A stretch of 15,316 nucleotides of DNA from Pseudobacteriovorax sp. (GCA_050293845.1 JBNKNM010000125.1:1-15316), one strand, 5' to 3'; positions 1-15,316 are shown, numbered from the stretch's first letter. The notes: a model not told the origin generated them from the sequence alone. Made by a program: numbers and translations.

Positions 1-442
1 TATTTAGATATTTCACCTGCCTCACCTCAATGGCAAGCTCATAGGCTTCATTTAAAGCTTCAATGCCAGCCTTGTTAGCTCCAGACTTATCAATATTTAT
101 GACCCGAGGAATCTCGCATTGTCGGATGGCTTTATTGAAAAAACGTAGGGCAGCTTTTTTATCTCTTTTTGCGGAAAGGAGAAATTCCACTGTATCTCCA
201 TCGGTGTCTACAGCTCTGTACAGCCATTTCCATTGGCCCTTGATTTTTATGCACATTTCATCACACCGCCAGCTGTCACTGGTCGCCTTTTTCCTCTTAC
301 GATTCTGAGTTTCCAGCTTTGGGGTGAATATTAAAACCCAGCGGTTAATGGAAGAGCAATCGACTTTGATACCGCGCTCTTCCATCTTTTCTTCAAGCTG
401 CCGGTAGCTAAAAGGATATCTAAGGTACTACCTGACACACTG
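1..442 (-). pseudogene. IS6-family DDE transposase, 5'-truncated with an in-frame stop
   Basis: Manual translation: QCVR*YLRYPFSYRQLEEKMEERGIKVDCSSINRWV...SWRCDEMCIKIKGQWKWLYRAVDTDGDTVEFLLSAKRDKKAALRFF...INIDKSGAN...RQVKYLN. TAG at 428-430 replaces the conserved Trp of VRWYLRY. The usual N-terminal FKGRHF segment and start codon are missing. Confidence 0.9.
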
Positions 443-538: not shown

Positions 539-3500
539 TTATCTGTTGTATTTTATCCTACAAGTTTCAAGCCCGATATTCCATAGATCATGGTTTACGT
601 CCAAAAACCCAGACTCGCCACGATTACAATCTAACCACTTGGGGCGTGTTCTTGCTGTATAAGATATAACTTCATCTTGAGCCAGAACAGTCAGATTTTT
701 TTCATCTAAAATCCACACATCACCATTTGCATTTTTACCGATGGAATCCGGTTTTTCAAAACCATTTTCTCCAATACGGAATTCCACAAGCGAATCAGTA
801 CTCATCTCGTAGACTTTAGGAGGTTTACCGTCGTTCGAACCAAAGACCAAAAGTCGGCCCTGATATCTTACGATGTGATCACCATCGTAGAATTTTGGAT
901 AGGTTTTAATAATCTTGCCATCTTTCAAAAAACTTATGCCATCATCATGGGAGATTCCAATGATATTTTCGTTTAAAAGCTGTATATCACGAATCCCAAA
1001 GATGTACTCACTGTCGCTTTGCTCTTTTAAATAAGAACTCCAGAATCCATCTGATCCCTTTACATAGATTCCTGCAGCTCGGGTTGCTACAAAAATATGG
1101 TTTTCGTCGCTAGCAAGCCCAACAATCTCAGTTTCATAATCATCAAAATCTTTGCTAAGTGTTTCAATCGTCTTGTTAAAAGATTTATCGATTGTCCACC
1201 GGTCATCATTTCGAAAAGCCAGGGATGTCTTAAACTCACTGTCTCCAACAAGTTTCCCTCCGGCAATTGCTTGTATCATTCCGTTGGTTCCGCGAAGGAA
1301 GTGAGTTATTCGCTCAAAAGGGAAGCGGCGGTTTCTTGTATTTAGTCTATCAATTTGATTATCTTTAATTATTGCTAAGCCTTCAGTACGGGTGCCAACC
1401 CAAATCGAGCCATCCCGATCTTCTGAAAGAATTTGACTATCGAAAGGCAGAGTATCCCAAAATATAGTTTGATCAATATCGCCATCACTACTGATCAGAA
1501 TATCGTCATTTGCCAGCCAGAGTCGACCAGAGCTATCACGAAAACTAACCGAGAAGTCTTCAATATCTTGAAATGCTTCCAACTTCAAATCACCCCATTT
1601 ATCTCGAATTTGAATCGCGCTGGCATCGTAGAGCGTCTGGATCTTTTGGTTTTGGATCTCCAAAACAACTGGCTGCCGCCCCCTTGAATCATTTAGAGGA
1701 TTTGAAGTCTTACCGCCGACAATCCATTGCCGATTGCCTTCACTCCAACCGCCTAAACCTATAAATCCACTGTGCGAGCTTTGGTATTCGGTGGCATTGC
1801 TCCAAGTCTGATTTGCCGTTTTAATACGGCTGCGGCCAGGCTGAAGCCAAAAAATACTGCCATCCTGTACTTGCGTGATTCTTGAGTATGATGTTTTGCC
1901 CTTGCGGCCACGATAAATCGGGTATGATTCGTACATCCACTTAGTATCTCCAATTAGGTACGAACCAAAGCTTCCAAAAGCCCGCAAACTGCCATCGGGA
2001 TCTCGGTCAATAGCTTGAATGTCATCATATTCCCTGTAGGATGTTTCCTCAACAAACTGATTACCATGATCGGTCCATTGCCCATCCGTTGTCAGGCTAG
2101 CAATTCCAGCTGACATACCGGCAAACCAGAGGGTCCCATCCATATCCTCATCTATGGCCGTGAAATACTTTCCTGAGATACCAATATCTGCCGGCGTAAG
2201 ACGGACGAGAGTCTCATCAGGTTCCAAATAGGCAAAGCCTTTACTTACAAGCAACCATAGTCGACCAACTCGATCAAAATGAAGTCCTCGAATCTGACTA
2301 TCTTCCAGGTCCGCAACGGCTTCAAATTTCTGGCTACCAGGGTTTAGCTTAAATAGTCCTTTGTAGGCGGCCACATATATGGTTCCATCTTGACTCTCGC
2401 GAATATCGTTAACGCCGTCCTTTAGCTCTGGATCATCCCATATTTTCCAGCTTATAGAAGCCTTAAGGTTAAAGCGGACACTGGTGTGGCTCTGAAATTC
2501 TTGACCGATATAATCTGTAACACGAGCATTGACAATCATGGTCGCTTGGTCGAGTAGAGCCCAATCAGGATCAATACTGAACTCCAGTAGATCGTTACAG
2601 CTTCGAGGAGCACCTAAGGTTTCTAGATCACAGGAATCAGAGAGACAGGTGGCTGCGTCGCCGGGTAAAGGAGCACCGCTGGATAATTTAAATTCGACCC
2701 AACATTCTTGCCTCATTCTGAGTTCGTCCTGATTGAGCAAATCATCTTGCACACTGATGACTGCGGCGTATCTCAGTCGTGGCCGCCTCACTGTAGAAAA
2801 CTTATCATTTAGAGTCGGATCTTGCCATTTGATGTCCAAACGAGGTTTCGAACCGTCAACCAAAATATTTTGGACAATTTTCTCGGATCGATTTCCGGCG
2901 CGATCTTCGAGAAACAGAACCTGCCGAAAACGACCTACCTCAGAAAGAATGATGCTATTGACTTTTTCAAAATCTTCATCATTTTGACAACTAAACTCCG
3001 TCCAGTCTTCGATTGATTGGCGACAAACCTTGATCTCGGTGTCGTCGTTCAAAATAATGGGAATAACAGAATTTATGGCTAGTTGAAGGTTGTTTTCTTG
3101 AAGTTGGATGGCTTCGGAAATGTTTGGTGACCGAGTCAGAACCTTAATATTACACAGGGGCTCGGATCGAAATTGTTCACCCATAGCATCAACGATACTA
3201 TATCCAATTCTATAGACACCACCAACTGATGCTTCCAACCCAAGACTATCCCCTGTTGCATCAATTAGTGCAAAAGGCTCCTTCAGCGATCGTTGCAGTA
3301 TCTCATCGCCCGGCCCACTGGCCCAGATTGAAATCGTTGTACTTGTTGTACTCGATGAATTGAGATTTGAGCTATATGGTACTGTTAGAATACCACTGGA
3401 ATAGGTTTCGTTTTTGCGATCGCATATTAATCGAAACTCCGGTTTCTGATAATTTCTAAAATTTAATTGCGACAGCCTAGGTCTATTATTTTGTTGAGGC

Positions 3501-3823
3501 TCGATATGGCCGATCCAATTACGATCGGCTACGAGAACCTCAATATTTGCTGTTTCATACTCAGAAAGTTGAATGCAACCTTTCGACGAGATTGAAAAGC
3601 TAATTTGCTCTTTAGCGTTGACTCTAATTCTCGCTATGTCAGCAGGTTCCAACTCTTCATTTTCGGGAGTTAGGAGTTTAATAGCTTTAGCTGAAATATT
3701 GTTTTCAAACGGGCCACACTCTCGCAGAACCTGTGAGTAGTCAGCCGATATATTTGAAGGAGAACAGGATGGCAAAAGATTAATCACTAACGCAAGGAAT
3801 GGAAGATATTTTAAGATTATCAT
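539..3823 (-). CDS. Large secreted lipoprotein: Cys-containing Ig-like N-terminal region plus two-component-regulator-type beta-propeller repeats
   Basis: 1094-aa ORF. Hydrophobic signal ends in lipobox-like LLPSC. Ig-like strand motif EDRAGNRSE..VDGSKP. Repeated blade motifs ESQDGTIYVA, FDRVGRLWL, EDMDGTLWFA, RDPDGSLRA, RDSSGRLWLA, EDRDGSIWVGT, KNANGDVWI. No kinase or transmembrane segment at the C-terminus. Confidence 0.8.
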   Translation of the reverse strand: MIILKYLPFLALVINLLPSCSPSNISADYSQVLRECGPFENNISAKAIKLLTPENEELEPADIARIRVNAKEQISFSISSKGCIQLSEYETANIEVLVADRNWIGHIEPQQNNRPRLSQLNFRNYQKPEFRLICDRKNETYSSGILTVPYSSNLNSSSTTSTTISIWASGPGDEILQRSLKEPFALIDATGDSLGLEASVGGVYRIGYSIVDAMGEQFRSEPLCNIKVLTRSPNISEAIQLQENNLQLAINSVIPIILNDDTEIKVCRQSIEDWTEFSCQNDEDFEKVNSIILSEVGRFRQVLFLEDRAGNRSEKIVQNILVDGSKPRLDIKWQDPTLNDKFSTVRRPRLRYAAVISVQDDLLNQDELRMRQECWVEFKLSSGAPLPGDAATCLSDSCDLETLGAPRSCNDLLEFSIDPDWALLDQATMIVNARVTDYIGQEFQSHTSVRFNLKASISWKIWDDPELKDGVNDIRESQDGTIYVAAYKGLFKLNPGSQKFEAVADLEDSQIRGLHFDRVGRLWLLVSKGFAYLEPDETLVRLTPADIGISGKYFTAIDEDMDGTLWFAGMSAGIASLTTDGQWTDHGNQFVEETSYREYDDIQAIDRDPDGSLRAFGSFGSYLIGDTKWMYESYPIYRGRKGKTSYSRITQVQDGSIFWLQPGRSRIKTANQTWSNATEYQSSHSGFIGLGGWSEGNRQWIVGGKTSNPLNDSRGRQPVVLEIQNQKIQTLYDASAIQIRDKWGDLKLEAFQDIEDFSVSFRDSSGRLWLANDDILISSDGDIDQTIFWDTLPFDSQILSEDRDGSIWVGTRTEGLAIIKDNQIDRLNTRNRRFPFERITHFLRGTNGMIQAIAGGKLVGDSEFKTSLAFRNDDRWTIDKSFNKTIETLSKDFDDYETEIVGLASDENHIFVATRAAGIYVKGSDGFWSSYLKEQSDSEYIFGIRDIQLLNENIIGISHDDGISFLKDGKIIKTYPKFYDGDHIVRYQGRLLVFGSNDGKPPKVYEMSTDSLVEFRIGENGFEKPDSIGKNANGDVWILDEKNLTVLAQDEVISYTARTRPKWLDCNRGESGFLDVNHDLWNIGLETCRIKYNR

Positions 3824-4923: not shown

Positions 4924-5931
4924 CTAACAAATTCTTGGCAGTGGATCATCTTCAAGTTCAGGTAGAATGCGCTGCCCTCCCCATTCAGTGATTAATTTTA
5001 CCTTAGATAATGGGTCTGGAGCGCTGGTGATCTTCCCGAGGATACTGGCTGACTCTCCTCCTTCTAAAGCCTGCCATTGGGTCAGTAAAATTTCAGCACT
5101 TTCAGAACTAGTGATGGCAATGATCCGTCCTTCACAAGCAAGATACAGAGGATCAAAACCAAGCATGTGACAAAGTTCCTTGACAGAGTCTCTAATAGGT
5201 ATGGCATTTTCATATAGCTCGACTCCCCATCCTGTAGCTGCTGCTACTTCATGGGCAACTGTAGCGAGTCCTCCTCGCGTCGGGTCCCGTAGAAAACGCA
5301 GCCCCTCAACTTGCCAAGCTCGCTCGGCAAAGGGAAGAATTGATCCGCAATCTGACTTCAGGTCACCACGTAAACCAAAGTCTTCTCGGGCAAGAAGGAC
5401 GGCCACACCATGATCCCCAATGGGGCCACTGCAAATCAGTTGATCCCCTGCTTGGATCAAGGGAACGCCAAGAGTTTCGCGCTGTAAATAGCCCACCCCA
5501 GTTGTGGTGATATAAATACCTCCGCCATGGCCTTGGGGCACCACTTTAGTATCACCAGCAACCACCTTGACACCTGCAGTGGCAGCAGCATGTTTCATGG
5601 ATGCGGCAATACGTGACAAGGTTGCAAACTCCAGGCCTTCCTCAATAATGACAGCACAAGTCAAATGAGTCGGACGTGCGCCGGCAACGGCTAAATCATT
5701 CACGGTTCCATAGACGGACAAGGAACCAATATTTCCTCCAGGAAATTCCAATGGCTGAACGGTGAATCCATCGGTGGTGAAAGCTAATTTACCTGATGTT
5801 AATGAGGGCTGAATAATAGCTGCATCAAGATCGCTGTCCAAACTCTCACCAAAATCGAAAATGCTTTCAATAATTCTTCGTGTTCTTTTTCCACCATTAC
5901 CATCTGCCAGTATGATTCTTTTTTCTATCAA
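4924..5931 (-). CDS. hypE: Hydrogenase maturation protein HypE (carbamoyl dehydratase)
   Basis: FTTDGFTVQPLEFPGGNIGSLSVYGTVNDLAV, GDTKVV, RDPTRGG, ACEG and the diagnostic C-terminal PRIC. ATG overlaps the hypF stop. Confidence 0.97.
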   Translation of the reverse strand: MIEKRIILADGNGGKRTRRIIESIFDFGESLDSDLDAAIIQPSLTSGKLAFTTDGFTVQPLEFPGGNIGSLSVYGTVNDLAVAGARPTHLTCAVIIEEGLEFATLSRIAASMKHAAATAGVKVVAGDTKVVPQGHGGGIYITTTGVGYLQRETLGVPLIQAGDQLICSGPIGDHGVAVLLAREDFGLRGDLKSDCGSILPFAERAWQVEGLRFLRDPTRGGLATVAHEVAAATGWGVELYENAIPIRDSVKELCHMLGFDPLYLACEGRIIAITSSESAEILLTQWQALEGGESASILGKITSAPDPLSKVKLITEWGGQRILPELEDDPLPRIC

Positions 5932-8195
5932 CTTTGCTTTCCTAAATATTCAATGAGTTGCCCATACGCTATGCCGCCATCTCCCAACGGAATTTTGGGG
6001 GAAACATAGGTTTTTATATTTTCTTTTTGTAAGCGTTCCCATATTCCTTCGGTCAACAACTTATTAGCAAAAACGCCACCACCAAAGTTAACCGTAAAAG
6101 ACCCCCTATGTTGTCGCTCGGCGACTACAAAATGTACACAAGTGGCGATAAGGCTTTTGTGAAAAATAGCAGCACGTAAAGAAGCAGGTATATTTTGATT
6201 GCTCACGATAGAAATCAAGGGAGCGTAATCAATCCTCCTTAAACCAAAAGTGTCGCTGTAAACAGGGAGAATGAGCTCCTCGGCGTGGTCCATGGAACTT
6301 TGGGCTAGTGTTTCCAGCTCTTGGGGCCCCTGAGCTTCATAATCATAGTGATTCCGATCTAAAATCCAAGAAGCGGCAGCATCAAACAAACGGCCTACTG
6401 CCGAAGTCTCATAGCAGCCCACTTGCCTTTCCCAGGCTTGAAATAAAAAATCTCGATCTTTGACTACCGACCCCGGGTCTTGTTGCAGCGCAAATGCGAT
6501 ACCAGCTCGAGATCTCCAAGACTCACGGCCAGAGTGAACAGCTCCCGGAATCCTTAAGGGCCTCAAGCTGAGGATACGCTGCCAGTGACCGGGGCGTCCG
6601 TAAAAAGCTTCTCCTCCCCAAAGAGTATTGTCTTCACCAAGTCCCACACCATCCCAAGTGAAAACAAGGTGCTTCTCATGATGGGCTAGAGGATTTATCG
6701 CTGCAGCAGCATGGGCCCGATGATGGTAAATCATTTCCACTTTAAGATTTGATTGCTGAGCCCAAAGGTGACTGGTGTATTGCGGATGGGCATCACAGAG
6801 AACTTTTCGGGGAGATACCTGGTAAAGCTCACTCAATTCCCTAATTCTGTCCTGAAATGCTGCTAAAGAAGCAGGGCTATCTAAATCACCAACATGGGGG
6901 GAAAGAACGATTCTGCGTCCCCAGCCTATGGCAATAGCATTTTTTTTGTGACCTCCCACGGCTAAAATTGGCTCGGCAAACTCCTGTTCCGTATCTATTT
7001 CAACGGGACCCAGTCCGCGTCCGATGCGCAGTGGTATGATCTGTCCTGCGATCTCCTTGACTACGGAGTCATCGGCACGGCGGATAATTTTCCGGTTGGA
7101 ATGAATAAACATGTCGGTGATCATATGGAGCTGAGATGTGGCTGCCTCTTCAGTTGTGGCGAGGGGCTCTCCACTAGGATTTCCCGAGGTTACGACTAAA
7201 GGTCCATCGACCACTTTTAACAGAAATATATGAATGGCCGTATATGGTAACACCACTCCTATCTCAGCCAATCCCGGTGCTATCTGTTTAGATAAGGAAC
7301 TACTCCTCCGCGAGGGAAGCAGAACGATAGGGCGTTCTTGGGATCGCAGTACCTGTGATTGTAATGGTGTTGTATAAGCATAGTGTCGGATATGCTCCAA
7401 ACCATCGACACCGGTTTCCTCTACCATGATAGCAAGTGGTTTTGCTGGTCGATTTTTAAGTCTGCGCAACCGGTCGACAGCTTCATCATTACAGGCATCG
7501 CAAACCAAGTGATAGCCGCCGATCCCTTTTATAGCAAGAATGAAACCCGCTTTTAGCTTTTGTCCTGCTTCATAAAGGGCTGCGCTGCTAGAATGCGACT
7601 CAGAATAGAGCTGCGGGCCACAGTTCGGACAACAGATCGCTTCTGCATGGAAGCGACGCGATGAGGGATCTTGGTATTCATGTTCACATGCTACGCATAG
7701 GGTAAAGGGAGCCATACTAGTCTGGAGGCGGTCATAGGGCATGGTCTTGATGATCGTAAAGCGTGGACCACATTGGGTACAGTTAATAAAGGGATAAAGA
7801 TAGCGTCTATTGTTTTTGTCATTAAATTCTTTGAAGCAATCTAAACACAACCCGACATCTGGAGGGACAAAAATATCGGGATTTTCGTTATGGCTTGGAG
7901 CAATAGAAAAACTATTATAATAATCTACAAACTCATTTGTACTTATACTCCGAATAATCGTTGGATGTGATAGGTGAGGCGCATCTGTAATAAGCCGTTC
8001 TTCAAAGCGATCCAGTTTTTTTTCATTTCCCACCACGATGATCTGGACCCGGCCAGTACTATTCCAAACACAGCCTCTGAGCTTAAGATTCTGAGCTAAC
8101 TGGTATACAAAGGGACGGAAGCCCACACCCTGCACCCGGCCGCGTAATTCGATTTTACGCATGCGATCCTTTTCTGGTGCAGAAAGAGGAGTCAA
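5928..8195 (-). CDS. hypF: Carbamoyltransferase HypF
   Basis: Acylphosphatase-like GRVQGVGFRPFV, two zinc fingers (CLDC..CTQC; CVAC..CPNC), YrdC-like KGIGGYHLVCD, Kae1-like HHRAH, WDGVGLGEDNTLWGGE, GGVFAN, DGGIAYGQ. Start placed at TTG 8195, which overlaps the hypD TGA; the ORF-track start at 8255 lies inside hypD. Confidence 0.95.
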   Translation of the reverse strand: MTPLSAPEKDRMRKIELRGRVQGVGFRPFVYQLAQNLKLRGCVWNSTGRVQIIVVGNEKKLDRFEERLITDAPHLSHPTIIRSISTNEFVDYYNSFSIAPSHNENPDIFVPPDVGLCLDCFKEFNDKNNRRYLYPFINCTQCGPRFTIIKTMPYDRLQTSMAPFTLCVACEHEYQDPSSRRFHAEAICCPNCGPQLYSESHSSSAALYEAGQKLKAGFILAIKGIGGYHLVCDACNDEAVDRLRRLKNRPAKPLAIMVEETGVDGLEHIRHYAYTTPLQSQVLRSQERPIVLLPSRRSSSLSKQIAPGLAEIGVVLPYTAIHIFLLKVVDGPLVVTSGNPSGEPLATTEEAATSQLHMITDMFIHSNRKIIRRADDSVVKEIAGQIIPLRIGRGLGPVEIDTEQEFAEPILAVGGHKKNAIAIGWGRRIVLSPHVGDLDSPASLAAFQDRIRELSELYQVSPRKVLCDAHPQYTSHLWAQQSNLKVEMIYHHRAHAAAAINPLAHHEKHLVFTWDGVGLGEDNTLWGGEAFYGRPGHWQRILSLRPLRIPGAVHSGRESWRSRAGIAFALQQDPGSVVKDRDFLFQAWERQVGCYETSAVGRLFDAAASWILDRNHYDYEAQGPQELETLAQSSMDHAEELILPVYSDTFGLRRIDYAPLISIVSNQNIPASLRAAIFHKSLIATCVHFVVAERQHRGSFTVNFGGGVFANKLLTEGIWERLQKENIKTYVSPKIPLGDGGIAYGQLIEYLGKQS

Positions 8196-9298
8196 AGGCT
8201 CATCCCCACAGATTTTCTTTCTTTCCTCATACCAGCAGCCCACCATATGGCACAAGCGCCTTCATCTGATACCATACAGGGTCCTATTGGACTTTGTGGT
8301 GTACAATTTTTCCCATAAAGAGCGCATTCCAAGGGCTTTTTTAAACCAAGTACAACCTTGCTGCATGAGCAGCCGCGGGGCATCTGACCCTTATACCGTC
8401 GCTTGGGATCAGCTAAGTCTTGAAACTTTGTGCGAGCATCTAATGCCTTATAAGAACCCCTTAGTTGGTAACCGGAATGGTCGATGGCCCCGATTCCACG
8501 CCAATTTGATTCTGTAATCTCAAAAACTTCAGATAAAAGATTTTGAGCTGCCATAGAACCTTTCGGTGAAACAACGGTGGGATAGCAGTTGCTTAATTTT
8601 ACTTCGTGGGAGAGTGTTTGATGAGCAAGATCTCCCAGAGCAAAAATAAGCTCTTCTGGTTGAAAACCTGATATCGCTGTAGGCAGCCCATAGTTTTCGG
8701 GAACAAAACTCCATTCCTCAGCTCCCATTATGGTTGCGACATGCCCCGGAGCAATGAGAGCATCAAAACCTATGGGGCCCGTTTTTAACAGACTATCCAC
8801 AATGGGCCATGTTCGGCGCCCGGATAAGAGAATGCTAAGATTGTGCGGGATACCTTCTTTTATGCAAGCCGCCACAGGAGCCATAGTGGTTTCAAATCCT
8901 GCAGCAAAGAAGACTATATCCTTATGGGGGTTATCGCGGGCTAGTCGTACTACTTCCTGTGGGGAAGCTATGGGGACTACCCCAGCTCCCGCTGCCCGCG
9001 CTTCCGTCAGAGAGCGTATTTTTGTTGTATTTGCCGGAACTCTTAGCATATCACCAAAAGCGGCGACGATAACATTTTTTTGGAGTGCTATTTGGATGGC
9101 TAAGAAGATATCTTCTTCGGGGCAGACACAGACAGGGCAACCAGGTCCAGGGATGAGGTCAATCTTGTCTTCTAATACTGTCCTCAGCCCACCATGTGAA
9201 ATAGTCCTTTCATGGCCTCCGCAAACATTTAGAACCCGCAATGGTTTTGTAAAAGGTAACTCCCTTAATTTTTGCAGAACGTGTTGAACGGTGCTCAT
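8192..9298 (-). CDS. hypD: Hydrogenase maturation scaffold HypD
   Basis: VCGGHE, GPGCPVC, GFETT, PGHV and the C-terminal Fe-S region CSC..C....CTP..PIGPCMVSDEGAC. ATGA overlap with the hypB stop. Confidence 0.97.
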   Translation of the reverse strand: MSTVQHVLQKLRELPFTKPLRVLNVCGGHERTISHGGLRTVLEDKIDLIPGPGCPVCVCPEEDIFLAIQIALQKNVIVAAFGDMLRVPANTTKIRSLTEARAAGAGVVPIASPQEVVRLARDNPHKDIVFFAAGFETTMAPVAACIKEGIPHNLSILLSGRRTWPIVDSLLKTGPIGFDALIAPGHVATIMGAEEWSFVPENYGLPTAISGFQPEELIFALGDLAHQTLSHEVKLSNCYPTVVSPKGSMAAQNLLSEVFEITESNWRGIGAIDHSGYQLRGSYKALDARTKFQDLADPKRRYKGQMPRGCSCSKVVLGLKKPLECALYGKNCTPQSPIGPCMVSDEGACAIWWAAGMRKERKSVGMSL

Positions 9299-9747
9299 AA
9301 ATGAACCTTTAGTTTATGTTTCCTATTACCGTCGAGCTTCTCTCGAATCCAACGGAGCCAGGAATCGATACCAGGATGCGATCGTACACTAATCTCGCTA
9401 ATGGGGGCTGTAGTTCCTGTTGTTATTTGTACAGTGGGAACACCTTTGGCTCGCATTCTGTCGGCATCATTTTCTGTTTCTAAATCACCTTCGATGACTG
9501 CCATGCGCACTTCATCGCGCAGAGCTTCTATCGTCGCTTCGAGAAGGCTGGTTTTACCTGAGCCTGGCGACGACATGAGATTCATGGCTAAAACGTGGTG
9601 GCGGTCAAAATGCTCTCGATTGTGCAGCGCTTCATGGTCATTGGCACGTAATAGTCGTGTGGCTAGCTCTGTAACCTGGATTTTAGCTGTGCCACTAGAA
9701 ACAATCAAGTCCTTGCTATTTAATGAGCATCCACAATGGTCACACAT
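9295..9747 (-). pseudogene. hypB: HypB nickel-insertion GTPase with an in-frame internal deletion (150 aa)
   Basis: Starts MCDHCGC after a GGAG RBS. Keeps the P-loop SSPGSGKT and VIEGDLETENDA, then jumps from QITTGT to TAPISEIS...W. The CHLDA metal site, ENVGNLVCP and the NK/TKxD motif are absent. Confidence 0.92.
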
Positions 9748-10092
9748 CGTCACTCTCCATTTCCACCCGCTGCAACACCAGTTCATCGCCACTGACTACG
9801 GATGTTTTCCAATCGTGCAATGCAGGCAGGTTAAATTCTGCGCAGGAACTTCAGATTCCTTGCCACAGACAGAGCATCTTACTCTGATGGGGATTTCTTG
9901 TAAAATCATCTCTGCCTTGTGAGCCAAAGTTCCGTAACGGTCCAGGGTAAATACTCGTTGAAGTAAATCAAATTCCACCCCAGACAAAGACCCAACACTT
10001 ACAGTAATTCTTGTTACATGATGGGCGCGCTGAGATAAGGCTAACTCTTCAACTTGATTTAATTATGATTGGCAAACGGTAAGTTCATGCAT
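9740..10092 (-). pseudogene. hypA: HypA nickel chaperone with a nonsense codon and a 1-nt deletion
   Basis: MHELTVCQS*LNQVEELA...GSLSGVE...CSVC...CLHC, then shifts frame to DWKTSVVSGDELVLQRVEMESDDV*. TAA at 10063-10065; frameshift near 9815-9817; span 353 nt, one short of a multiple of three. Confidence 0.93.
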
Positions 10093-10099
10093 GGCTGAT

Positions 10100-10342
10100 T
10101 CACCTCTGATGTAGTTGAGCATCCAGCTCTAGCATTTCATCTAACATTTCCCATCGCAGCACGGCTTCATCCTGATCTACTTTCTGAATGGCATACCCGA
10201 CGTGGACTAATACAAAGTCTCCTGCTGCAATCGTTTCATCTTGTAGCATAAACAAGCTGACTTCTCGCTGAATACCCTTGATCTCGCAAGTGGCCGCAAA
10301 ACCATCGACCACTTTAACTTCCATTGGGATTGCTAAACACAT
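10100..10342 (-). CDS. hypC: HypC/HupF family hydrogenase chaperone
   Basis: N-terminal MCLAIP and GDFVLVHVGYAI motifs; 80 aa. Confidence 0.96.
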   Translation of the reverse strand: MCLAIPMEVKVVDGFAATCEIKGIQREVSLFMLQDETIAAGDFVLVHVGYAIQKVDQDEAVLRWEMLDEMLELDAQLHQR

Positions 10343-10345
10343 CGT

Positions 10346-11281
10346 TTATCGTACCTTTATCTTTGTCAATTCTTTACCGTCTGGATCGTGAACATGGACA
10401 GCACAGGCAATACAAGGGTCGAAGCTATGAACGGTGCGTTGGATTTCTAAGGGCTGCTTGGCGTCATAAAGTGTATGGTTATCCATCAACGCCGCTTCGT
10501 AGGGGCCGATCCCTTGCTGGGCATCACGAGGGCCGGCATTCCAAGTACTGGGAACGACCGCTACATAATTTCGTATTTTACGACCGCGAATGTCTACCCA
10601 ATGGCCCAAAGCTCCCCGGGGAACCTCCATAAATCCCACACCACGGCAGCGAGAAGACCAAGTTGATGGTTTCCACTTTTCAGGATTATGAACAGTGAGG
10701 TCGCCATTTTTTATATTGCTTATCAGCTGATTGTACCAATGGTCCATTTGGTCAATAAAAAGTCGCGACTCTAAAGCCCTAGCTGCGGTGCGACCCAGTG
10801 TGGAAAACAGAGCTTCCGTAGGCAAGTCCAAATGGGTTAAGGTTTTATTTACTAGTTCCTTAGTCGGCTCGTGGTCCTTAGCAAGCAGTACGGCCACCCG
10901 TGCCAGAGGTCCCACTTCTACCGGAGACTTTAGCCAAGAATAGCTCTGATTGGTATCCAATTGCTCGTAGGGAGGTTTCGGCCCAGTATAGTTTAACTTG
11001 GTTTCACCGTCATACGGATGAAGGCCTTTAGCTTTGCCCTCTTCGTAGTCATACCATGAATGGGTCACAAATTCTTGAACCTGCTTAGGATCGTTAAAAT
11101 CGACAGGTTCAACTTTGGATAAATCGCGATCTAAAACGACTCCAGGTGGGATATAGGCTTGATCAACAAAATTTTTCATGCTTTCGATTACCTGATGCAC
11201 TGTCTGCAAACTCACAATATTCACCGCAGTTCCTGCCGTTCCTCCATTTGATCCGGGGGGATCGGCGCTGATGGGTGATGC
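10346..11281 (-). pseudogene. Group 1 [NiFe]-hydrogenase large subunit, C-terminal remnant with internal deletions
   Basis: Retains HSWY, YSWLKSP, EVGPLAR, STLGRTAAR, PRGALGHW, VVPSTWN and L2 motif SFDPCIACAVH with a 15-aa cleavable tail. Homology extends upstream of GTG 11224 through ASPISADPPGSNGGTAGTAVN to about 11281, then an in-frame TAG follows. No L1 (RxCGxC) motif. Confidence 0.92.
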
Positions 11282-11410
11282 TAAATGACTATATTGAGAA
11301 AACTATAACTTTGGGATTCCGTTATCGTTGCACTGCCAGCAAGGCCATGGCCTGGAAACTCGATAATATTACCGTTTTCGCAAAGTAACCACACCAGACT
11401 TGCTCTCCTG

Positions 11411-11433
11411 AGCAGCTGGTCTAGCCAGCTGCT
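11411..11433 (-). terminator. Hairpin just downstream of the ACP gene (possible terminator or mRNA-stabilising stem)
   Basis: Perfect 9-bp stem AGCAGCTGG-N5-CCAGCTGCT, 16 nt after the ACP stop, extendable by TCCT/AGGA pairing. No U-tract. Confidence 0.4.
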
Positions 11434-11449
11434 ACTAGGATTGCAAAAG

Positions 11450-11695
11450 TCACTGCAGATACTTCTGCATGCACTTGACACCTGCATCAATTGTCAAAAA
11501 ATTCTTGTAATCATTGTTTGATATTTCAATTTTAAATTTTTCCTGGACTTTGATGATATAGTTCATAATATCCACCGAGTCCAAATCCAATTGCTCCTGT
11601 AAATTTTCCGTATCCACTAAAGGTTCATCCTGTGCCTCAGGTGCAATAAGGGTTAAGGCTGATACCAGTTGTTCTTTAATCTCGTTCGCTTCCAT
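11450..11695 (-). CDS. Standalone acyl carrier protein
   Basis: 81 aa, acidic, LQEQLDLDSVDIM with the phosphopantetheine-attachment Ser (DS), followed by EKFKIEI...TI. RBS AAGGAAGG 5 nt upstream. Confidence 0.9.
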   Translation of the reverse strand: MEANEIKEQLVSALTLIAPEAQDEPLVDTENLQEQLDLDSVDIMNYIIKVQEKFKIEISNNDYKNFLTIDAGVKCMQKYLQ

Positions 11696-11707
11696 GTTTA
11701 CCTTCCT

Positions 11708-12946
11708 TTACAGTCCCATTCCCAAGGATGTGGGATCAGCTAGATGTTTTTTAATATGATTCAGAAATAGACCACCACGGTGACCATCGCTAGCCCTATG
11801 ATCCGCTGATAATGTGACTGTGACAATTGGTTTAACTCCCACCATACCATCCGCAGCCCAAGGCTTGGGTGTTACAGTACCGAAACCGACAATGGCGACT
11901 TGGGGGGGGTATATCACTCCGAAAACAGTTTCAACTCCTTGATCCCCTAGGCTAGTTATGGTTATGGTCGGATCGGATATTTCAGATCCGCGTAACTTCC
12001 CAGACCGCGCCCGACTCACAAGATCCAGAAGATCAGCCATGATCGTATCTACCGATTTAGTATTAACATCATGAATCGCCGGTGCCACCAAACCTCCTTG
12101 CCTTAAGGAGATACCCATTCCTGTATGGACTGAGGATGCCGCGTGAAATTCACCCTCAATCCAGAAGCCATTCATTTCAGGAACCTTCATGCAGGCTAAG
12201 GCTACTGCCTTCGCATAGAGGGCAGCAGGCAATACCCGCTTGGTAATGGGTTTCTCGGTATTGAGCTTGTCAAGAGCCGCAAGACAGGTTTCCATATTAA
12301 CTTCAGTTTGTAGATAATAATGGGGAATTTCCCGTTTCGAGCGACTCATACTACTAGCTATTGCAGCCCTCATAGCCGAAGTTTTTTCGTGCTTAGCGGC
12401 TACATGATGGGGCACTGTCTTGCTTGGAGCCTGGTCATAATAGTCTTCAACATCTTTACGAGTAATGGTGCCATGGGGACCGCTACCATGGATAAGAGCT
12501 AAATCAATATTTTTGGCAGCAGCCATTTTTCGCGCCAGCGGTGAGGCCCTCAGCCTCCGGGAGCGGGGAGGACCTATATTGAGAATTTTGGGTGCGCTCA
12601 CATCACGATCATTTAACGCAACACTTTTAGCAATATCATGGAGAGTTCTTGAAGACAGCTCTTCCCGTGAAGGAGAGGCTTCTGACAGCGCTGGTTCTGG
12701 AGCAGAAGATTCTCCATCGATTAGGGCCAGCACGGTGCCCACAGGGACTTCTCTATCGACCCCAACAAGGGCCTCGCGAAACGTACCTGTATGCCAAACC
12801 TCGACTTCAATAATTCCTTTTTGGGTTTCCACCTCTGCTATGATATCACCACGATTGACATGATCACCTGGTTTGACATGCCAAGCTACTATCTTGCCAC
12901 TTTCCATATCTGCACCCAGGGATGGCATTTTGAATTCTTCAACCAT
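11708..12946 (-). CDS. pdhC: 2-oxoacid dehydrogenase E2 (dihydrolipoamide acyltransferase), single lipoyl domain
   Basis: Lipoyl domain [11 protein letters not shown]...[11 protein letters not shown]; subunit-binding domain ASPLARKMA...[13 protein letters not shown]; catalytic DHRASDG. Confidence 0.93.
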
Positions 12947-13928
12947 TGTTTTGTACCACCTCTTTAGCCATCTTTACGATACTATCCACCTGTGGAATAG
13001 CTGCCGTTTCTAAGTGTTTGGCATAGGGTATAGGAATTTCTTCACTGCATAGCCTAGCTACCGGCGCATCTAGCTCATAAAAAGCTTTCTCCATAATGCG
13101 CATGCCAAGTTCTGCGGAAAGACTTCCTGATTTCCAGCCTTCATCTACAATGAGGACATGGTTGGTTTTCTTTACAGCATTGACAATAGTTTCTTCGTCC
13201 AAGGGGCGCAATACGCGCAAGTCCACCACCTCGGCTGAGATACCTTCTTCACCCAAAATATTTGCCGCCTCCATCACTTTTGGTAACGATCCGCCATAGG
13301 TTAGAATAGTGAGATCACGTCCTTGCTTGTGGATCTGCGCTTTAGCGATATTAAAATCTTCCAGTACATCGGTATCCAAGGTACCCTTCATGTTATAGAG
13401 CATCGCATGTTCAAAAATAAGAACAGGATCGCGCTCTTTGAGGGCGGCAAGGAGCATTCCATAAGCGTCATTGATAGTTGCTGGTGTGAGAATTTTTATA
13501 CCTGGTATATGGGCGTACCAGCCCTCCCAACTGTGAGAATGTTGTGCTGCCAGCTGTTTACCAGCACCAGTAGACATACGGATCACAATGGGGACATTGA
13601 ATTGGCCACCTGACATATGACATAAGGTTGCTGCGTTATTGATGATCTGATCCAAGGCTAAGAGGCTAAAGTTTACCGTCATCACCTCTACAATGGGCTT
13701 CATGCCTCCTAGAGCGGCTCCAATACCTGCGCCCACAAAACCAGATTCTGACAAGGGAGTATCGCGCACTCTTTCGGGGCCATATTTTTTAAACAAGCCG
13801 TGAGTTACGGCATAGCTGCCACCATAGCCACCAACATCTTCCCCCATAATAAAGACCCGTTCGTCTTCCCCAAGGGCTCGGTCAATAGCTCTTTTTAATG
13901 CCTCTCGGTATGTGATTTCTTCAGACAT
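12939..13928 (-). CDS. pdhB: Pyruvate dehydrogenase-like E1 beta subunit
   Basis: [51 protein letters not shown]. Confidence 0.95.
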
Positions 13929-13930
13929 AA

Positions 13931-14896
13931 TTAACCCTCTTCCGCATAAACAAAACGGTGCAAGTCTTTAATTTCCTCTAAAGCAGCCTGTTGCGCGAAC
14001 TGAATGGCATCGGCTATTTCTGCAGCAACGTCATTTTTTATTCCTGTAAGGTCAGTCTCAGTAAGAAGATCAAGCTCCTTCAATTTATTTGAGAACAGAA
14101 GGATAGGGTCTTGCTTTTTCCACTCCTCAACTTCTGCTTTTTCCCGATAAAGCTCTGGATCGAACATGGAGTGAGCCCGGAAGCGATAGGTTTTACACTC
14201 GAGAAAGTAAGGCCCTCCTTCAGATTTAATTGTCGCAATAGCTTGACCCACAGCCTTCTTAACAGCAAGAAGGTCCATGCCATCAACGCTACTCGCAGGC
14301 AAATGGTATGACTCAGCTTTTTTTACTAAATTAATTTCTGACTCGGAACGCGCCAATGCCGTACCCATTGCATAGAGGTTGTTCTCACAAATAAATAATG
14401 CCGGAACCTTCCATAACGATGCTATGTTCATGGCTTCGTGAAATTCCCCTTCAGCCATGGCTCCTTCGCCAAAAAAGCAAACGGCTACTTGATCAAGTTT
14501 TTGCATCTTAAAGGACAGTGCCATGCCCGCCGCTACAGGGAGAGCTCCGGCCACTATAGCATTACCACCAATGAACTTGGTGTTCTTATCAAATAGATGC
14601 ATTGAACCACCACGACCGCGGCTGCAACCCTCCACCTTGCCAAACATTTCAGACATGATGGAACGGGCAGAGATGCCACGAATTAATGCATGACCATGCT
14701 CCCGGTAGGTCGCAAAAATAGCATCATCAGGAGTCAAGGATTCAATAGCTCCTACAGCTATAGCTTCTTCCCCAATATAAAGGTGAAGAAACCCTCTAAT
14801 ATTTCCAGCGGAATACTGCTCGGCACAAGCTTCCTCAAACATCCTAATGCGAAGCATTTGCTTTAAGAGGTGATGACCCTCATGGCGATCAATCAT
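13931..14896 (-). CDS. pdhA: Pyruvate dehydrogenase-like E1 alpha subunit
   Basis: [27 protein letters not shown], ThDP motif GEGA...[15 protein letters not shown]. Start overlaps the acs stop. Confidence 0.95.
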
Positions 14897-15316
14897 GGTT
14901 TGTTCCCCCCGTTGTCGTAGGATCTTGCTCTAGGGTAGAGGTATCCCCTTCAGGCAAGCCCATCTCTCGCGCTTTTAGTAGACGCCGCATGATTTTACCA
15001 CTGCGCGTCTTTGGTAAACTTTCTTTAATCTCAATCTCTCGCGGTGCTACCGCTGGTCCAAGTTTTTTACGAGCAAATCCCATAATATCGCGGTGCACCT
15101 CTTCAGAAGCTGTGTAGCCCCTATTGAGGGTTACAAAAGCTTTTACCATCTCCATCAATACAGGATCAGGTTTTCCTATGACCGCCGCTTCCGCAACGGC
15201 AGGATGTTCTATTAAAGTGCTTTCAACCTCAAAGGGACCAATAAGGTGTCCTGCAGATTTAATGACATCATCGGCGCGGCCAATAAACCAAAAATAACCA
15301 TCACTGTCTCTTTTGG
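14889..15316 (-). CDS. acsA: Acetyl-CoA synthetase / acetate-CoA ligase, 3' portion (partial at the right edge)
   Basis: Frame is open to the window edge: [48 protein letters not shown]...[15 protein letters not shown]...GDTSTL. Confidence 0.93.

Follow-up and report, generated by a model that had tools for sequence, protein, structure and literature searches.

The window analysed here is the whole of a 15,316-base contig (C125; JBNKNM010000125.1) from a 6.68-Mb Pseudobacteriovorax sp. assembly of 741 contigs with 41% G+C. Across positions 11450-15316, its minus strand carries, in order, the 3' end of an acs gene for an acetate-activating ligase, genes for the alpha and beta subunits of an E1 component of the pyruvate dehydrogenase (PDH) type, a gene for a dihydrolipoyl acyltransferase (E2) and a gene for a small acyl carrier protein (ACP) (Table 1). 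The acs and E1 alpha genes overlap by 8 nt, E1 alpha and E1 beta lie 2 nt apart, E1 beta and E2 overlap by 8 nt, and a 12-nt gap separates E2 from the ACP. These coordinates and junction lengths agree with the first-pass annotation of the sequence, which had described five co-oriented genes overlapping or lying no more than 12 nt apart. It had also read the gene after E2 as an ACP with an intact DS motif and had seen no dihydrolipoamide dehydrogenase (E3), ketosynthase, nonribosomal peptide synthetase (NRPS) or phosphopantetheinyl transferase (PPTase) nearby; a Pfam scan of 14 open reading frames (ORFs) gave the same picture, with no domain of these four kinds in the window. The identity of the ligase was likewise upheld by Pfam, although only its last 141 codons lie inside the window. 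The first 463 codons are on an adjoining contig (C157:3-1391), which overlaps the window end by 10 nt and continues the reading frame.

A terminator-like site lies at the ACP stop codon (11469-11454; 1 found against 0.4 expected), and direct reading revealed a perfect 9-bp inverted repeat, AGCAGCTGG/CCAGCTGCT, further 3'. These hairpins are the probable end of the operon. The next gene past the ACP is a truncated NiFe hydrogenase large subunit, and the operon therefore stops at the ACP. A contig of run X1, built with another assembler, covers positions 9000-12526 without a difference, indicating that the ACP/hydrogenase junction is not a binning artefact; the run possibly comes from the source sample, so this is an assembly check and not an independent sample.

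Table 1. Features of the 15,316-base window
Feature	Position	Strand	Basis and remarks
acsA-type acetate-activating ligase, 3' end (last 141 codons)	14889..15316 (ORF 14889-15314, open 5')	-	AMP-binding_C 86.5 bits (Pfam)
E1 alpha, PDH type, thiamine diphosphate (ThDP)-binding subunit, 321 aa	13931..14896	-	PF00676 (E1_dh) 283 bits; TIGR03182
E1 beta, 329 aa	12939..13928	-	Transket_pyr and Transketolase_C (Pfam); NF006667
E2 dihydrolipoyl acyltransferase, 412 aa	11708..12946	-	PF00364 lipoyl (K43), PF02817 PSBD, PF00198 catalytic (D382 H383 R384)
Private ACP, 81 aa, pI 4.2	11450..11695	-	PF00550 (PP-binding) 21.8 bits, cut-off 20.8; Ser40 in LDLDSVD
Two hairpins, at and just past the ACP stop codon	11414..11469	-	Terminator prediction and direct reading
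NiFe hydrogenase large subunit (hupL)	10346-11224	-	C-terminal half only, profile positions 243-508
hypB	9295-9792	-	Cut to 165 aa
hypC, hypD, hypF, hypE	4924-10342	-	Look intact
1094-aa protein	539-3823	-	Faint Reg_prop (two-component regulator propeller) repeats, hydrophobic N-terminus
IS6-family (DDE_Tnp_IS240) transposase fragment	2-385	-	At contig end

Conservation and spread of the cassette

The genome carries a second E1 alpha/E1 beta/E2 set on another contig (C143; L015 3714-8429), next to fabF. This set passes the three PDH equivalog cut-offs (E1 alpha 426 bits against 394, E1 beta 476 against 454, E2 454.8 against 445) and represents the housekeeping PDH. The proteins encoded in the window are 42% (E1 alpha), 46% (E1 beta) and 29% (E2) identical to these paralogues, compared with 52-64%, 57-68% and 34-59% identity, respectively, to cassette copies in other phyla. 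The genome also has a second Acs (C59), three lpdA genes scoring above cut-off (C105, C11 and C54), three PPTase-family genes, all on contigs other than that of the window, and a sucA gene split over two contigs, one of which also bears an E2 and an E3; an aceE-type E1 was not found in the genome. The first-pass annotation had allowed that the module might be the ordinary PDH with its E3 just beyond the window. No lpdA lies in the window or in the 13 kb upstream on C157, where the rest of acs is followed by a gene for a 530-aa protein, the phosphoenolpyruvate (PEP) synthase gene ppsA (1206 bits), a P-type ATPase and a Na/Ca exchanger, and with the housekeeping set residing on C143 the module is not the ordinary PDH. 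The earlier observation that the ACP sits where E3 usually does is correct as to position and carries little weight here, as the housekeeping PDH, which is preceded by fabF and followed 3' by a TnpB/IS605-type gene, also lacks an adjacent E3.

Conservation of the ACP beside E2 had been named as a neighbourhood check of the proposal, and it was borne out by searches from either side. One-genome-per-species contigs were searched with a profile of five cassette ACPs; at least 600 stretches matched, 567 were confirmed and the best 80 loci were kept. The E2 match ends no more than 250 nt before the ACP in 77 of these best 80 of 567 loci, at a median distance of 14.5 nt. The exceptions are a locus with a partly detected E2 (L090), one in which Acs is followed by the ACP (L098) and one with no cassette gene (L079). 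Among the same 80, the order acs-E1a-E1b-E2-acp was found in 60 of the 63 loci having at least 5.2 kb of upstream sequence, the misses being L079, a locus whose Acs is displaced off it by an insertion (L082) and a locus with no E1b (L101). The L079 ACP lies in a ketosynthase/ketoreductase cluster and is best read as the nearest outgroup of the cassette ACPs.

The second search started from E2 and is therefore not circular. Among 131 genomes of the window's own phylum, 100 had an E2 match at E 1e-40 or better. Cassette-type E2 was present in seven of the 131, including the window's own (about 45-62% identity, E 1e-79 or better), and the other matches, 29-37% identical, are housekeeping copies. 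The ACP lies immediately 3' of E2 in all seven and keeps the serine of the D-x-D-S-x-D motif. An eighth genome, from the same family (G007), contains a decayed cassette (L032 9930-12657), in which a deletion has fused E1 alpha at residue ~160 with the ~60 C-terminal residues of E2; Acs and the ACP are retained, and a P-type ATPase abuts the ACP. The cassette was not found in the same-genus relative G001. In two genomes of the same order (G066, L114; G061, L116) the cassette lies no more than ~4 kb from the housekeeping E1a/E1b/E2 genes, with an APH-like kinase homologue between them.

The best 80 of 567 loci are spread over some ten phyla: Actinomycetota (with numerous Mycobacterium and Mycolicibacterium, and Rhodococcus), Pseudomonadota, Nitrospirota, Acidobacteriota, Methylomirabilota/Rokubacteria, Gemmatimonadota, Myxococcota, Chloroflexota and Binatota. 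A phylogeny of E1 and E2 had been suggested as a further check and was run on E1 beta, as a quick tree of 78 rows with at least 90% coverage (midpoint root, careful search unfinished, support from the Shimodaira-Hasegawa-like approximate likelihood-ratio test (SH-aLRT) only). A branch with SH-aLRT 100 splits 75 cassette rows from three housekeeping rows. The window clusters with three genomes of its own phylum (support 97); in the rest of the tree members of different phyla are interspersed. Plasmids also carry the cassette: tblastn gave 33 plasmid records at E 1e-30 or better, of which 16 span 80% of E2 or more. In Desulfotalea psychrophila LSv54 a conjugative 122-kb plasmid encodes acsA-pdhA-E1b-E2-'phosphopantetheine-binding protein' followed by a lipoate-protein ligase (L117 10520-11530), so that in this sulfate reducer the unit travels with its own lipoylation enzyme. 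On plasmid pGW6_1 of Methylocystis rosea GW6 the cassette has a universal stress protein (USP) nearby. On pDK1 of Rhodococcus sp. DK17 it is accompanied by a USP, a GAF histidine kinase and response regulator, a GNAT protein, a PfkB-family kinase and a homologue of the 530-aa protein of the window's genome (30% identity over 453 aa). The intermixing of phyla in the E1 beta tree and the carriage on plasmids, one of them conjugative, indicate that the cassette is mobile. We conclude with high confidence that it is an accessory, horizontally mobile five-gene operon, acsA-pdhA-pdhB-E2-acp, which gives the cell a further copy of its housekeeping Acs and PDH E1/E2 together with a dedicated ACP. The earlier proposal of a dedicated, conserved pathway is thus supported by both the separate PDH set of this genome and the conserved ACP-E2 linkage.

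Identity of the components

E1 alpha scores 433.4 bits on the equivalog model TIGR03182 (PDH_E1_alph_y; cut-off 393.85), and its closest solved structure is human PDH E1 alpha (E 1.6e-70). E1 beta passes the subfamily model NF006667 (406 bits, cut-off 321) and falls below the equivalog NF008854 (382 bits, cut-off 454). Transketolase models reach 18-43 bits on the window E1 against cut-offs of 488-788. The closest solved structure of E2 is mitochondrial PDH E2 (E 4.9e-65), and its score on the PDH E2 equivalog TIGR01349 is 256.4 bits, under the cut-off of 445. All 61 cassette E2 sequences compared keep lipoyl Lys43, the glycines and prolines of the peripheral subunit-binding domain (PSBD) and the catalytic D382-H383-R384 unchanged. 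Because these E2 residues are invariant and E1 alpha passes the PDH equivalog, the parts of the cassette look functional.

The cassette thus resembles the heterotetrameric-E1 PDH of alphaproteobacteria and mitochondria (PdhA, PdhB, PdhC, Lpd), in that its E1 alpha passes the PDH equivalog, its E1 beta the subfamily model alone, and its E2 has the lipoyl-PSBD-catalytic arrangement with the catalytic His. In contrast to that system, it is an extra copy whose E2 lies under the PDH equivalog, it has no E3 in the unit, it begins with acsA and ends with a dedicated ACP, and it is mobile across phyla and found on plasmids. It also resembles the acetoin dehydrogenase AcoABC(L), an accessory set of E1 alpha/beta and lipoyl E2. 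However, the cassette E2 matches the acetoin E2 model NF011457 in the lipoyl domain only (83 bits, cut-off 307), and E1 alpha passes the PDH and not the acetoin model.

The two halves of the ligase match the acetate--CoA ligase model NF003313 (PRK04319), that of the 572-aa Bacillus-type AMP-forming acetyl-CoA (coenzyme A) synthetase AcsA, end to end. The C157 half matches positions 7-445 with 630 bits and the window half 446-574 with 234 bits; the total of ~864 bits, a rough sum over two contigs, compares with a whole-protein cut-off of 729. For an Acs orthologue from the same order, the closest solved structure is a 572-aa acetyl-CoA synthetase (E 5e-172). The WWQTETGG motif and the C-terminal motif, which we take to be functional Acs motifs, are intact. 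Unlike the usual AcsA, the cassette ligase is translationally coupled to a PDH E1 and shares one operon with an ACP.

The ACP falls below both the AcpP equivalog TIGR00517 (27.7 bits, cut-off 70.45) and its top-scoring ACP model, NF002150 (34.4 bits, cut-off 66). Its matches among solved structures are ordinary and mitochondrial ACPs (E 1e-6 to 1e-4), and the ESM Atlas clusters containing it are generic 'carrier domain' clusters only. Residues A18, P19, D37, D39, S40 and D42 are invariant in 82 ACP sequences, and the motifs IAPE and IPExDY are nearly so. The search pattern forced D-x-D-S-x-D, and none of the other motifs, in 78 of the 82 (the 80 pattern-found loci minus L079 and L098), and Ser40 is kept in all six ACPs found without this pattern.

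A possible route for the acetyl group

In 2-oxoacid dehydrogenase complexes the acyl acceptor is taken to be CoA. For the cassette we tentatively favour, at less than even confidence, a reading in which E2 would hand acetyl to its private ACP, the AcsA-type ligase would convert the thioester to or from acetate and ATP, and E3 would be supplied in trans. As expected from family membership, E1 would decarboxylate pyruvate and reductively acetylate the lipoyl arm of E2; that pyruvate is the substrate is suggested by the equivalog match and the pyruvate-centred neighbours. E2 would then load acetyl onto the phosphopantetheine thiol of the ACP, either in place of free CoA or in addition to it, the ACP having been made holo by one of the three PPTases of the genome. 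The fixed, translationally coupled E2-ACP pair, the divergence of E2, the Qnc/Scl precedent described below and a weak complex prediction all point to this transfer. Since CoA and holo-ACP share the phosphopantetheine arm, the ACP could take acetyl from E2, serve Acs as its thiol substrate, or do both. E2 is also the sole cassette component scored well under its PDH equivalog while E1 alpha passes, as would be expected if the acceptor had changed. The E2 catalytic domain shares the chloramphenicol-acetyltransferase fold with NRPS condensation domains, which take carrier-bound phosphopantetheine thioesters; exchanging CoA for ACP would thus be a small chemical step, the analogy being one of how the domains work.

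The precedent comes from QncN/QncL/QncM of quinocarcin and SclQ1-4 of scleric acid biosynthesis, where a ThDP-dependent E1-like enzyme, a lipoyl acyltransferase and a discrete ACP are encoded together and act on a C2 unit whose final carrier has been proposed or demonstrated to be the ACP (PMC6335953). The cassette likewise combines genes for these three kinds of protein. In those systems, however, the E1 parts are transketolase-like and convert a ketose phosphate to a glycolyl unit, and the genes lie in NRPS clusters with their own PPTase (SclP). The cassette E1 alpha passes the PDH equivalog, no NRPS, polyketide synthase or PPTase recurs around it, and an AcsA ligase is included; the systems are set apart here by description. 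The analogy with naphthyridinomycin and quinocarcin drawn in the first-pass annotation therefore holds for the logic of passing a group from lipoyl-E2 to ACP, and fails for the E1, which is of the PDH type, and for the surroundings.

To the pairing of E2 and ACP, complex prediction lends weak support. A trimer of E2 residues 183-412 with the ACP gave a score of 0.58 (runs 0.58, 0.63 and 0.34), compared with 0.30 for the best control. The runs agree in at least 93% of contacts, with a partner pLDDT (predicted local distance difference test) of at least 83; the interface was not reported. In the calibration, 116 of the 157 solved complexes scored high enough to pass the mark, as did 2 of the 215 mismatched pairs; scores of 0.60 or less were obtained for only 18 of the 157 solved complexes and for both mismatches that passed. 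The prediction used custom alignments and a set-up unlike that of the calibration.

For the ligase, which would interconvert the acetyl thioester with acetate and ATP, the ATP-yielding direction seems likelier in starved, low-oxygen cells, in which pyruvate would be converted via acetyl-S-ACP to acetate and ATP (from AMP and pyrophosphate (PPi)). This direction is preferred because PEP synthase, pyruvate kinase, alanine dehydrogenase and universal stress proteins occur as neighbours. The lipoyl arm would be re-oxidised by an E3 supplied in trans, as suggested by the E3/E1-binding domain kept in E2 and the three lpdA genes elsewhere in the genome. We consider it very improbable that the cassette performs E3-independent chemistry, with E1/E2 working non-oxidatively or in reverse, either in acyloin formation or as an electron sink from acetate through acetyl-ACP and acetyl-lipoamide to acetaldehyde. 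The unit never includes E3, and an E3-like gene occurs in only 1 of the 83 loci surveyed for neighbours (see below); flavodoxin-like proteins are inserted between E1a and E1b in two betaproteobacterial metagenome-assembled genomes (MAGs; L049 5091-5657, L080 5050-5796), and a forward-running Acs would supply acetyl-ACP. However, the PSBD of E2 is invariant, the housekeeping PDH is also without an adjacent E3, so that absence from the operon says little, and the scheme would cost ATP, which is unlikely in dormancy, and finds no aldehyde or alcohol dehydrogenase in the unit.

Several observations weigh against acetyl transfer from E2 to the ACP. By every measure the ligase appears to be an ordinary CoA-using AcsA, and the E2 catalytic domain seems to resemble mitochondrial E2p throughout. 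The complex score falls in a band that would more often be wrong than right unless the guess was likely beforehand. When ACP distances were correlated with those of the enzymes over the 39 of 83 loci in which all six high-scoring segment pairs (HSPs) reach at least 85% coverage, plus the window, r was 0.64-0.71 for all four enzymes, and the partial r (Acs 0.24, E2 catalytic domain 0.22, E1a 0.19, E1b 0.11) singled out no partner. A Rhodospirillales MAG (L098 3032-5023) has neither E1 nor E2 between its Acs and the ACP that follows: both genes are intact and of the cassette type, and ~50-80 nt separate them. A Pat-like acetyltransferase lies upstream, and the contig ends 72 nt past the ACP. This may be a minimal Acs-ACP pair, and it would fit a pairing of the ACP with Acs as well as or better than one with E2. 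For an AMP-forming ligase to run backwards PPi is required, and the locus contains no source of it. In this genome the cassette also adjoins decaying genes, the truncated hupL and hypB, so that it may not be in use here.

E2-ACP fusions were considered as partner evidence and rejected. Among 27 longer ACP relatives, ~12 combine 2-oxoacid_dh and PP-binding domains, all of them in single-member clusters, and these are frameshift artefacts: in four full-length cases the C-terminal end of E2 gives way to an out-of-frame stretch, rich in R, P and G, that leads into the ACP frame. This, too, counts against the ACP as acetyl carrier. Two Acs-ACP chimeras look like deletions or misassemblies.

A stronger form of the proposal, which we regard as unlikely, is a CoA-independent PDH in which the ACP would replace CoA for both E2 and the ligase, making the cassette a plasmid-transmissible pyruvate-to-acetate ATP module, insulated from the CoA pool, for dormant or oxygen-starved cells. 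The first-pass annotation had likewise suggested that the ACP may act as carrier between E2 and the Acs-like enzyme, which remains the leading hypothesis; the complex prediction lends the E2 side of it weak support, and the ordinary appearance of the Acs speaks against the other.

The cassette could instead be an ordinary second PDH plus Acs making acetyl-CoA under stress, with E3 in trans and the ACP as an auxiliary, either an octanoyl donor for lipoylating this E2 or a regulatory or structural subunit like the mitochondrial ACP in other complexes. We rate this as possible, if on balance somewhat unlikely. It would account for the intact PDH hallmarks, including the retained E3/E1-binding domain, and for an Acs that looks like a full AcsA by both model and structure match. 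Pat-like acetyltransferases, which regulate CoA-forming Acs, are nearby in 5 of 83 loci, the lipoate-protein ligase after the ACP on the Desulfotalea plasmid suggests that lipoylation is a concern of the unit, and the best matches of the ACP in the PDB include, weakly, mitochondrial ACPM subunits (E 2.6e-4). What it leaves unexplained is the tie between ACP and E2 across loci in the absence of any recurrent octanoyl-forming or lipoyl-transfer enzyme. The lipoate ligase was seen once and scavenges free lipoate, for which no acyl-ACP is needed, and E2 is the one PDH part to have drifted far under its equivalog cut-off.

Genomic neighbours and surroundings

Genes outside the cassette were surveyed by all-ORF clustering at 83 loci, with 3 kb or more of sequence available upstream at 43 of them and downstream at 69. 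The commonest family, the universal stress protein, occurs at 15 of the 83 loci, and none occurs at more. It is followed by DnaJ (12, with DnaK/GrpE/MerR, mostly in mycobacteria), a second AMP-binding enzyme (9), a CBS-domain protein (8), Hsp20 (7), wax ester synthase/diacylglycerol acyltransferase (WS/DGAT; 5), a Pat-like protein of the ADP-forming-ACS/GNAT type (5), alanine dehydrogenase (4) and a P-type ATPase (4). No ketosynthase, condensation domain, NRPS or PPTase recurs in at least 4 of the 83 loci within 8 kb, and the PPTases of the window's own genome, used as queries, matched at none of the 83. Genes linked to stress or low oxygen are frequent neighbours, and the recurring themes are pyruvate metabolism and stress survival, and not secondary metabolism. 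Some genes are inserted within cassettes, among them a pyruvate-kinase-like gene in Nitrospira (L082 2921-4864), a PNPOx-like FMN protein and a DnaJ/MerR pair; L085 6358-6840 and L104 3267-4520 are among the latter two kinds.

Directly upstream of acs, the 530-aa protein (C157 1529-3121, minus strand; L014) combines an APH-like N-terminal half (HGDLRPEH) with an AAA_33 kinase C-terminal half. Homologues lie beside the cassette in a Chloroflexia locus (L108), in Rhodococcus (L112 and L119) and in the window's own phylum (L114/L116). We take this architecture to be reminiscent of the mycobacterial dormancy protein Rv2004c. The neighbours presumably resemble the mycobacterial DosR regulon (Rv2004c, ctpF, tgs1, hspX, pfkB), a comparison by name only, these names co-occurring in DosR-regulon papers.

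The neighbours bear on whether the cassette supplies starter units, that is acetyl-ACP or another C2-ACP for a synthase elsewhere, for example in storage-lipid or fatty-acid synthesis as an electron sink in dormancy. The Qnc/Scl systems do so for glycolyl units (PMC6335953), WS/DGAT genes lie near the cassette at the loci counted above, and the nearest non-cassette relative of the ACP (L079) belongs to a ketosynthase/ketoreductase cluster. However, neither a ketosynthase nor a condensation domain or PPTase recurs around the cassette, the ACP lies far under the AcpP model of fatty acid synthesis, and the cassette travels alone on plasmids. Together, these observations make a starter-unit role improbable.

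Immediately 3' of the operon, the hydrogenase island is decaying. Nowhere in the genome was the N-terminal half of hupL found, hypB is truncated, and a search of five relatives with the truncated fragment as query found no comparable hupL. The transposase fragment and the truncated genes suggest an acquired, rearranged region. The cassette in this genome might thus be an unused passenger of a decaying acquired island, adjoining half a hydrogenase large subunit and a truncated hypB with an IS6-family transposase at the contig end, absent from the same-genus relative and decayed in the same-family one, where E1a is fused to the E2 tail. This seems quite doubtful, however, as the five reading frames are intact with all family-invariant residues kept, and the run X1 contigs show no frame-breaking differences.

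Implications for the family

A keyword search of the literature at the level of abstracts found no description of an acs-PDH-ACP operon or of E2-dependent acetyl-ACP formation, which is not to say that none is in print. The low-oxygen lxa locus of Burkholderia cenocepacia was considered as a cassette site and discarded: the main text of that study lists no such genes, and its tabulated acs gene BCAS0739, whose expression rises in stationary phase and under low oxygen, lies among unrelated genes. The combination of a PDH-type complex with its own ACP and a coupled AcsA is apparently both widespread and undescribed. Its carriers are currently annotated with ordinary acsA, pdhA, pdhB and a 'fatty acid biosynthesis' ACP.

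An E1/E2 pair that keeps an ACP in its operon in some ten phyla, and on conjugative plasmids as well, implies a function outside current pathway maps. Candidates are a protein-bound acetyl pool, a new form of substrate-level phosphorylation in dormancy, or a new auxiliary subunit of PDH. The carriers include cultured, tractable organisms, Rhodococcus sp. DK17, Methylocystis rosea GW6, Desulfotalea psychrophila LSv54 and Mycolicibacterium chlorophenolicum, in which the role of the ACP can be settled biochemically and through which routine annotation of the family would be corrected.

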